In this document: positions 14,857 to 15,653 of the stretch, in pieces
How positions within the stretch are numbered: position 1 is the first letter of the stretch
How the letters are laid out: the number at the start of each line of letters is the position of its first letter
Virus record (IMG/VR): IMGVR_UViG_3300026224_000011
Location: 1 to 28,437 of that record
Origin: a virus
Taxonomy: Duplodnaviria; Heunggongvirae; Uroviricota; Caudoviricetes
Length of the DNA stretch: 28,437 nt
Strand: one strand, 5' to 3'
The notes under the pieces: generated by a model
Told to the model about the DNA's origin: nothing
What the model saw: only the letters and a program-made list of their open reading frames with translations
The model's database searches: none
Translations under genes and position numbers: made by a program

Positions 14857-15108
14857 TTATTTATCACCATCACCGAGCGTCACTTCATGACAGGATGGCG
14901 TGCCATTTTTCCCCGCAGAGCAATAAATAAACTTATCCCCGCTGGTCACGGTGGCGCTTCCATCATCACAATGCGTAATGGTTTTGATGAAATTTCTCCT
15001 TACCACGCAATGCCCACTTTCCGCATCATCAGAAGCCTTGTTAGTTGTTACACAAAGCGCAATACCCGTAACAATCAGAGCGATAATAAAAATGTCAACC
15101 CATCTCAT
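14857..15108 (-). CDS. small membrane-anchored Cys-rich protein
   Basis: 83 aa from ATG 15108; N-terminal TM helix then a domain with four Cys; AT-rich block. Confidence 0.4.
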   Translation of the reverse strand: MRWVDIFIIALIVTGIALCVTTNKASDDAESGHCVVRRNFIKTITHCDDGSATVTSGDKFIYCSAGKNGTPSCHEVTLGDGDK

Positions 15109-15112
15109 CTTT

Positions 15113-15298
15113 TCACCCCGCGTAATCAGGTCCGTGTTCCCATCTGGCATCGAGTATTTCCGTTCCATCTGTCCGGCATGGGTTATCAAGTGCCATTTTT
15201 CCGCACTCTCCATACTCGACATCGACAAAATCAGCAATATCATTGTCCGTTGCGTTATCAGGAACGTCGATTTCAACCGTTACAGTGATAGTTTTCAT
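15113..15298 (-). CDS. small acidic protein
   Basis: 61 aa (MKTITVTVEIDVPDNATDNDIADFVDVEYGE...); ATG at 15298 with GAGGGA RBS; overlaps the upstream stop (ATGA). Confidence 0.35.
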   Translation of the reverse strand: MKTITVTVEIDVPDNATDNDIADFVDVEYGECGKMALDNPCRTDGTEILDARWEHGPDYAG

Positions 15299-15486
15299 CG
15301 TGTTGTCCCTCTGTGATTTTTCCAGCGGTTTTGGGCTGCGCTTCTGTTTCGCCAGACACCGTAAAAACGAATAGATGACCACTCCCTAAAACCAAGATAT
15401 CTATAGCGAACAACAAGCCGATTTGAGATACGGATAAGCTGCCCGGTTTTTGCTATCAGCAGTCTTGCCTTACGGTTTTTCATCAT
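15295..15486 (-). CDS. small basic protein
   Basis: 63-aa Arg-rich ORF; ATGA overlaps at both ends with neighbouring small ORFs. Confidence 0.3.
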   Translation of the reverse strand: MMKNRKARLLIAKTGQLIRISNRLVVRYRYLGFREWSSIRFYGVWRNRSAAQNRWKNHRGTTR

Positions 15487-15653
15487 TTTGCTCTCCTGCG
15501 TTTCTTTGCTTCGCGTCGTGCAGCTGCAATACCGGTATGGCGCTTTGGTGCCGGGATGATGCTGTCAGCCATAAGGGTATGCGGCTTTGCAATTAGCGCA
15601 GAAGCCCAAAAACGAGTCGGGTACGGTAATAAACCGATAAACGCGGCACGCAT
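15483..15653 (-). CDS. small hypothetical protein
   Basis: 56-codon ORF (MRAAFIGLLPYPTRF...) not in the ORF track; TAATG overlap with the upstream stop and ATGA with the downstream start. Confidence 0.25.
   Translation of the reverse strand: MRAAFIGLLPYPTRFWASALIAKPHTLMADSIIPAPKRHTGIAAARREAKKRRRAK

Follow-up and report, generated by a model that had tools for sequence, protein, structure and literature searches.

The closest described counterpart of the locus considered here is the semi-essential region of bacteriophage Mu, a dense early operon of small genes (kil, gam and gnarl2/Mup07 to gemA and mor) in which the literature places gnarl2/Mup07, a small host-modifying accessory protein. The window, by which we mean the whole stretch of 28,437 nucleotides (nt) analysed (IMG/VR virus record IMGVR_UViG_3300026224_000011), holds a Mu-like prophage, and at the position of the Mu semi-essential early genes it carries a block of four consecutive small open reading frames (ORFs), here termed orfA, orfB, orfC and orfD. 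This equivalence, already drawn in the initial annotation, is borne out by the surroundings of the block, which lies in an early operon, on the strand that also carries the MuA and MuB genes 5' of it and GemA and Mor 3' of it. However, the four ORFs show no homology to Mu's semi-essential products among the matches listed, and no Mu record appears among the tblastn matches listed for them (50,697 phage records). Two other described systems invite comparison. The lambdoid exo-xis/ea region is likewise made of small early ORFs, and an Ea22-like gene directly precedes orfA and orfB here, although this trio resides in a transposable rather than a lambdoid phage. Phage accessory regions and morons (Silas et al., preprint 10.1101/2023.04.06.535777) are likewise variable slots of small, lower-GC genes that differ between siblings; classical morons, however, have their own promoter and terminator, neither of which was seen for the four genes in a promoter/terminator scan. 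Since accessory regions hold anti-defence and host-modifying genes, gnarl2/Mup07 included, an expectation of host interference is reasonable; a general function of this kind is plausible for the block, as are anti-defence or exclusion roles.

Comparison with related loci points, with moderate confidence, to the block being part of a hypervariable accessory slot in the Mu-like early operon, filled by separate cassettes from a pool shared among temperate enterobacterial phages; the evolutionary and anatomical side of this description is well supported. Window proteins were mapped onto related loci (given L numbers where they have to be told apart), and gene order was read between conserved flanks, with a conserved DUF2786 gene and two small conserved genes bordering the slot on one side and a palindrome, a gene of 92 amino acids (aa), GemA and Mor on the other. 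The order in the window is Ea22-orfA-orfB-orfC-orfD. Escherichia coli E2348/69 (L001) has Ea22-orfA-orfB; E. coli GF75 has a divergent Ea22 gene, orfA, orfB and a gene for a 136-aa exported protein; L004 has a divergent orfB, the 136-aa gene, orfC and orfD; and L014 has a DUF4752 gene, the 136-aa gene, orfC and orfD. There is no orfC in L017 (divergent orfB, 50-aa membrane peptide, orfD) or in L020 (orfB, 136-aa gene, 39-aa membrane peptide and an orfD with an unrelated anchor), and no orfD in Klebsiella Mu-like elements, where an orfC-like gene is followed by DUF550 and GemA. The full order of the window is found in L070 and L071, with an orfB only 43% identical beside an orfC 97% identical, and L072, a contig that begins inside orfB, continues with orfC and orfD (orfB 50% and orfC 100% identical). 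Cassettes of the siblings also encode exported or membrane products, namely the 136-aa signal-peptide protein and the 39-aa and 50-aa membrane peptides. None of 5,426 complete E. coli genomes carries at least 80% of positions 14700-15800.

The same genes recur in other kinds of phage. Ea22-orfA-orfB is also present in Shiga toxin (Stx) phages, where orfA and orfB are unannotated, in phiV10 and in P1-like phages and plasmids, and is shared with Stx, phiV10-like and P1-like phages at 80-90% DNA identity; in phage 933W, for example, orfA-orfB occupies positions 3784-4103 downstream of the ea22-like gene L0069. The pair orfC and orfD is found mainly in sibling Mu-like prophages, relatives of orfC occur beside the xis/int end of lambdoid prophages as well, and orfC carriers altogether comprise Mu-like, lambdoid and P1-like temperate enterobacterial phages. 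As judged from gene order among related prophages and other phage types, the four genes are independently assorting cassettes and not the fixed single module that had originally been proposed, and this independent assortment argues both against one function shared by four proteins and against a toxin-antitoxin pair made of orfB and orfC.

Nucleotide alignments indicate where cassettes have been joined. By blastn block boundaries, two nucleotide blocks meet at an AATCAC sequence at the orfB 3' end: block I (14401-15318) contains orfC with 20 nt of its upstream sequence, orfD, the palindrome and the conserved downstream gene, and block II (15313-15668) contains orfA and orfB together with the final 15 nt of Ea22. 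AATCAC is also the breakpoint of the E2348/69 arrangement and so a recurrent one. Between orfB and orfC, siblings carry a 453-nt cassette encoding the 136-aa signal-peptide protein (L006, 159-611; L024, about 3525-3980), which has an (A)AATCACGG repeat on either side and whose absence from the window is exact. On the favoured account, recombination at short conserved stretches where genes meet adds, removes and exchanges cassettes. Because conserved DNA begins only 15 nt inside Ea22, orfA counts as a separate cassette that has been attached to various Ea22 genes.

Several observations weigh against this account of separate cassettes with host-directed roles. The four-gene order recurs in at least three other assemblies (L070-L072, in the last from within orfB), so that some linkage exists. 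For orfD, the ratio of nonsynonymous to synonymous substitution rates (dN/dS) is 0.75-1.6 between close relatives, with the changes falling in the N-terminal anchor and the linker; a value near or above 1 could reflect relaxed constraint on part of the protein. No similarity to characterised anti-defence, exclusion or regulatory proteins was found for any of the four products, acidity alone is a non-specific pointer to the target of orfC, and expression within the early transcript, although the simplest reading, has its basis in operon position.

The four ORFs are, by several sequence signatures, genuine protein-coding genes. They match PHROG families of unknown function (orfA, phrog_13831, E 7e-35; orfB, phrog_1380, E 5e-10; orfC, phrog_8773, E 4.5e-47; orfD, phrog_8391, E 1e-44), and pairwise Nei-Gojobori dN/dS against homologues in other loci is low for orfA (0.06-0.56), orfB (0.11-0.54) and orfC (0.09-0.54). 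The orfA copy of phage 933W carries an in-frame deletion of 7 codons, a Shine-Dalgarno-like motif lies 5-10 nt 5' of each of the four ORFs, and the C-terminal 50 residues of orfD, with their four Cys, are kept down to Klebsiella phage homologues of 43-45% identity. Across orfC-orfD (14857-15298) two antisense frames on the plus strand are open for 143 and 124 codons, in relatives too; no PHROG family matches the corresponding long ORFs (151 and 121 aa), which were rejected as genes, the constraint lying in the sense frames, and are probably shadow ORFs kept open by amino-acid composition. It is the PHROG matches, low dN/dS, in-frame indel, Shine-Dalgarno sites and lack of PHROG matches on the antisense strand that together identify the four as real genes. 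The earlier statement that the block has no recognisable family is correct as regards Pfam, NCBIfam, PADLOC and the Protein Data Bank (PDB), but all four products belong to recurrent PHROG families. Scans of the four ORFs against Pfam, NCBIfam and PADLOC gave nothing above noise, the sole PADLOC match being a chance-level one for orfD (E 0.036), and neither the individual ORFs nor the orfC family profile matched a PDB sequence; over the whole window, scans for Rfam families (at the gathering threshold) and for tRNAs were negative. No mention of these proteins was found in the literature by PHROG identifier or peptide string, and their four peptide motifs do not occur in the supplementary files of the Silas et al. 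accessory-gene screen (10.1101/2023.04.06.535777).

All four ORFs (56, 63, 61 and 83 aa) lie where they had first been placed, on the minus strand, and other elements of that first description hold in part. Linkage by ATGA or TAATG overlaps is present at three junctions (Ea22/orfA, TAATG; orfA/orfB and orfB/orfC, ATGA) but not between orfC and orfD, which are separated by a 4-nt spacer (TGAaaagATG); in L070 that junction is a 4-nt overlap. As overlaps of 1-4 nt are found throughout the early operon, coupling is a property of the operon and not special to the four genes. The block was described as low in GC, which is true of orfB (45%), orfC (47%) and orfD (44%) compared with 53.4% for the window, but not of orfA (52.6%). 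A highly basic, Arg-rich product was rightly recognised in orfB (13 Arg, net charge +16), and the very acidic 61-aa protein is indeed orfC, with a net charge of -11 and an isoelectric point (pI) of 4.05, although it contains 15 Asp/Glu (25%) rather than about 17. The membrane-anchored protein with four Cys corresponds to orfD, which has one clear transmembrane segment (2.76 on the Kyte-Doolittle scale with a 17-residue window, KD17) and four conserved Cys in its exported domain but five Cys in total. By contrast, the product called small and hydrophobic, orfA, is basic (pI 12, net charge +11), with a grand average of hydropathy of -0.27 and a KD17 maximum of only 1.05, and has no transmembrane helix. 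As regards start codons, that of orfB kept in relatives is the second ATG (15483), and family alignments confirm that of orfC.

The products of orfA and orfB appear to travel with Ea22. In the four loci read in detail (E2348/69, GF75, phiV10 and 933W), orfA lies directly 3' of the Ea22-like gene, annotated in relatives as encoding an 'ead/Ea22-like family protein', and orfB then follows orfA; overall, orfA is present in 67 phage records and orfB in 135. The true start of the Ea22-like gene is uncertain because it overlaps an upstream 54-aa ORF (16240-16404) by 67 nt. In E2348/69 the match to the 5' part of this gene forms a segment of its own, a hint of additional mosaicism within Ea22. Alignment of the orfB family shows invariant termini (MKNRKA... 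and ...SAxQNRWKNH) and a central R(I/L)SNR motif, and the centre is highly variable. Among homologues in L003, L004, L012, L013, L017, L070 and L072 the ends are nearly identical in DNA as well as protein, whereas the centres reach only 40-50% identity. Alleles of 40-50% identity lie between DNA flanks that are more than 90% conserved, and in these divergent alleles DNA is conserved only at 15465-15501 and 15309-15342, both more than 90% identical. This pattern suggests allele replacement between conserved flanks, and conserved ends around a variable centre might be the outcome of diversifying selection acting on a specificity determinant. In phage HEMP4, orfB is present twice in tandem.

The company of Ea22 also brings in the first alternative, in which the products would be developmental modulators, acting like lambdoid exo-xis genes on the choice between lysis and lysogeny, on the efficiency of induction or on host physiology. 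According to PMC3824215 and PMC7093339, exo-xis genes including ea22 affect lysogenisation, induction and the lysis-lysogeny balance, a tie that makes a regulatory role a live alternative to anti-defence for orfA and orfB. Ea22-orfA-orfB does stand in the ea/exo-xis-type region of 933W, phiV10 and P1-like elements, and both proteins are basic, as befits nucleic-acid binding. Against this, the exo-xis genes studied are orf60a, orf61, orf63, orf73, ea22 and ea8.5, with orfA and orfB not among them, and in 933W the two lie downstream of ea22 without annotation. Pfam or PDB-sequence search reveals no homology of orfA or orfB to Orf60a, Orf61, Orf63, Orf73 or Ea8.5; neither has a Pfam or NCBIfam match, nor one in a sequence search against all PDB chains; and the decision circuit of a Mu-like phage would differ. 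A developmental role is possible but unlikely for the block.

The family to which orfC belongs is a small one. A word-indexed search returned 13 clusters of relatives, and an exhaustive profile search of 1.84 billion representatives returned 35 clusters at 50% identity (E <= 0.001), nearly all of 54-73 aa and spread across Enterobacterales; neither the exact orfB-orfC junction nor the orfC pattern was found in species-representative genomes. Family members, of about 55-68 aa, share the motif MKTIxVTxEIxVPDxATDxDIxDWVxVEFG ... DNPC ... EVxxxxWE, in which P13 never varies and I21 and N39 hardly do. Their net charge runs from 0 to -13 (mean -7.6), with positions 9, 11, 14, 18, 20, 23, 26, 28, 38 and 47 acidic in at least 62% of members. 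Relatives occur at 36 IMG/VR loci, mostly in the early-left region of lambdoid prophages, where in many cases the next gene downstream, near xis/int, encodes an Rv2179c-like 3'-5' exonuclease, and no known anti-defence gene was found among their neighbours. Two paralogues share one early-left region in lambdoid prophages L033, L035-L039, L042-L046, L050 and L056; the gene before the second paralogue, which gave no Pfam match, is presumably an HD-domain YfdR-like gene.

Structure prediction and remote homology search, proposed at the outset as a check, gave for orfC a confident model but no relative. With 10 sequences the AlphaFold2 model was weak (predicted local distance difference test, pLDDT, 70.7); it was replaced by one from 32 sequences with a pLDDT of 94.3 and a predicted template modelling score of 0.74, consisting of a strand (4-11), a helix (18-28), a short helix (40-43) and a second strand (47-55) in a beta-alpha-(short alpha)-beta arrangement. 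The periodicity of strands and helix in this model would leave the Asp/Glu side chains exposed at the surface. Foldseek found no significant relative (best E 0.23 against BFVD and 2.5 against the PDB), and the best E of the family profile against PDB sequences was 0.77, so that orfC matches no solved DNA mimic. Like Ocr, ArdA, Ugi, phi29 p56 and T7 gp5.9, orfC, whose size and charge had prompted a comparison with DNA mimics in the initial annotation, is small, soluble and strongly acidic, and its acidity is conserved in the family; it shares, however, neither sequence nor fold with any solved mimic. In size and charge density we take it to resemble T7 gp5.9 and phi29 p56 in particular. That the orfC family forms an unrecognised class of acidic inhibitors acting by charge mimicry and that, separately, the centre of orfB is diversifying is a speculative proposal to which we give a minor chance; such an inhibitor could block a host nucleic-acid-binding protein of defence or repair. 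The specific idea that orfC is a DNA mimic is a doubtful one.

The orfD product consists of a hydrophobic N-terminal anchor (residues about 4-22) and a C-terminal domain of roughly 50 aa, in whose alignment the pattern HC...(H/Q)C...C...C is invariant. The anchor sequence is not conserved, being unrelated in L020, and homologues from Klebsiella phages and prophages instead bear a cleavable signal peptide, MTSKLTALIVLFIIPAAMA, followed by ADNPHC..., with the cut between AMA and AD. Interchange of an anchor with a cleavable signal peptide implies that the Cys domain lies outside the cytoplasm, a predicted topology in which it would probably form two disulfides. Two other readings of orfD were rejected: a cytoplasmic zinc-binding protein, given the cleavable signal peptides of homologues and the lack of CxxC pairs, and a classical lipoprotein, as the residues before Cys19 (I-A-L-C) are unfit for a lipobox. 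Exclusion proteins such as T4 Spackle and Imm, T5 Llp and Cor are small exported phage proteins, and orfD would resemble them as a small early-operon product in which an anchor or signal peptide at the N terminus precedes a compact exported domain, probably with disulfide bonds. It has no sequence similarity, however, to any Pfam family or PDB chain, no NCBIfam match, and none to known exclusion proteins. As the early operon is repressed in the prophage, any role of orfD would fall in lytic growth, for which an envelope-directed action is a reasonable guess by analogy with T4 Spackle or T5 Llp.

These properties bear on a second alternative, namely that the block is one co-functional module of anti-defence or superinfection exclusion in which orfC, as a DNA mimic, blocks restriction or another DNA-targeting defence. 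Tight packing and coupling of the four genes, the order shared with L070-L072, the conserved acidity of orfC at ten positions and the location in an early accessory region would all suit such a module. The genes are nevertheless found apart and in other combinations, PADLOC, Pfam and PDB searches return no match, and orfD would act outside the cytoplasm while orfC acts inside it; we consider this alternative improbable. A toxin-antitoxin-like or mutually neutralising pair of basic orfB and acidic orfC fares far worse, even though the two are adjacent with an ATGA overlap, bear opposite charges (+16 and -11) and meet at a junction that recurs in L070-L072. It was rejected as very improbable for want of obligate co-occurrence, in keeping with independent assortment: orfB occurs without orfC in E2348/69, GF75, phiV10, 933W and HEMP4, orfC without orfB in L014, Klebsiella elements and most lambdoid loci, and orfB alleles only 43-50% identical stand beside orfC genes 97-100% identical. 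That some or all of the ORFs are chance frames or decaying remnants in a defective prophage, as their very small size, the lack of a curated family, the orfD dN/dS values and the unusually open alternative frames of the region might suggest, is scarcely credible in view of the strong PHROG matches, the low dN/dS of orfA-orfC, the in-frame orfA indel, the Cys domain of orfD retained in Klebsiella phages at 43-45% identity and an orfC family of 35 clusters at 50% identity with a confident fold.

Under the favoured reading of a slot filled by separate cassettes, induction or infection would lead to transcription of the four genes along with those for transposition. Translation would proceed by coupling or from the Shine-Dalgarno site of each gene, and every product would act singly. 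The orfC product would be a soluble acidic mini-protein, its most likely action being to bind a basic nucleic-acid-binding protein of the host or of a rival and thereby block it; that of orfD would be exported and disulfide-bonded and would act at the envelope, for instance in exclusion or receptor masking; and those of orfA and orfB would be small basic proteins, probably nucleic-acid-binding, that travel with Ea22.

Coordinates of the block and of its surroundings are collected in Table 1. All genes in this part of the window lie on the minus strand, and three small ORFs stand between the DUF2786 gene and the Ea22-like gene. The promoter/terminator scan gave no excess over shuffled sequence, with 4 promoter-like sites against 5.6 expected. 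No Gam domain was found in 18 early-region ORFs scanned, a set that left out three small ORFs between MuB and DUF3164; Klebsiella relatives of the prophage do carry Gam. The prophage ends near 23.4-23.7 kb. The adjoining host genes prpR, prpB and prpC (window 23600-27700) share only about 91% identity with E. coli genomes, which makes an Escherichia species other than E. coli the probable host.

Table 1. Positions of the four genes, the borders of the slot and neighbouring prophage genes in the window.
Feature	Position	Strand	Size	Description
CI-type repressor	22740-23390	plus		
Ner-like helix-turn-helix protein	22335-22709			
MuA transposase	20293-22335	minus		
MuB-like AAA protein	19381-20274	minus		
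DUF3164 gene	18056-18700			
DUF2786/DUF7168 gene	16852-17568			
Ea22-like gene	15653-16306	minus	217-aa ORF	Pfam Ead_Ea22, E 9e-13; PHROGs 26213, 250, 660
orfA	15483-15653	minus	56 aa	Basic, pI 12; weakly hydrophobic Pro-containing N-terminal half; Arg/Lys-rich tail AAARREAKKRRRAK
orfB	15295-15486	minus	63 aa (62 aa from second ATG, 15483)	Arg/Trp-rich, basic
AATCAC breakpoint	15313-15318	minus		orfB 3' end, codons K-N-H; recurrent join of mosaic blocks
orfC	15113-15298	minus	61 aa	Acidic, predicted cytoplasmic; internal ATG within 89-aa GTG ORF
orfD	14857-15108	minus	83 aa	Predicted bitopic or exported; internal ATG within 139-aa TTG ORF
Perfect palindrome	14799-14826		28 bp	GCAGACCAAAACATATGTTTTGGTCTGC; spacer after orfD, downstream border of variable slot
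Conserved gene 3' of slot	14498-14776	minus	92 aa from likely start MKIEQ (ORF 104 aa)	phrog_7844, E 7e-69
GemA	14131-14526	minus		
ORF between GemA and Mor	13796-14134		112 aa	N-terminal signal-like hydrophobic segment; weak Sel1 match, E 0.022
Mor	13229-13696	minus		

The palindrome marks the downstream border of the slot and is retained by all Mu-like relatives, whichever cassette lies upstream; E2348/69 shows a compensatory change from C-G to A-T. As RNA it would form a hairpin of -27.6 kcal/mol (z -4.9). Lacking a U-tract 3' of it on the coding strand, it does not qualify as a canonical terminator; it could serve in processing or stability, or as a binding site for a protein. The 92-aa gene beyond it is 95-100% identical in all relatives and overlaps the GemA start; its assigned start is supported by E2348/69, in which an ATG inside the palindrome is lost and the gene is annotated with 92 aa. 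Further along, the region of the 112-aa ORF between GemA and Mor has a local GC content of about 40%, and the ORF is present in L002 and L004 but not in L014, while E2348/69 has another gene in its place; this looks like a second variable slot. Separately, Klebsiella contigs L008-L011 contain a Mu-like element of about 7.7 kb with apparently early genes only (A-like, B-like, Gam, DUF2786, orfC-like, DUF550, GemA and Mor), after which the host genes differ from contig to contig; such an element could be a satellite or a transposable element that has been truncated.

In summary, the slot is an ordinary one for temperate phages, with one modestly interesting family, that of orfC. It shows transposable, lambdoid and P1-like phages sharing small early genes by recombination at very short boundary sequences. 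Its value is mainly that of a lead: four real genes, better studied singly than as an operon-level module, two of which come with concrete hypotheses, orfC as a soluble acidic binder with a confident, unmatched model and orfD as an exported disulfide-bonded domain. Should orfC prove not to be an inhibitor, the block would be an ordinary set of phage accessory genes; if it does inhibit a defence or repair protein, a widespread new family would join the anti-defence catalogue.

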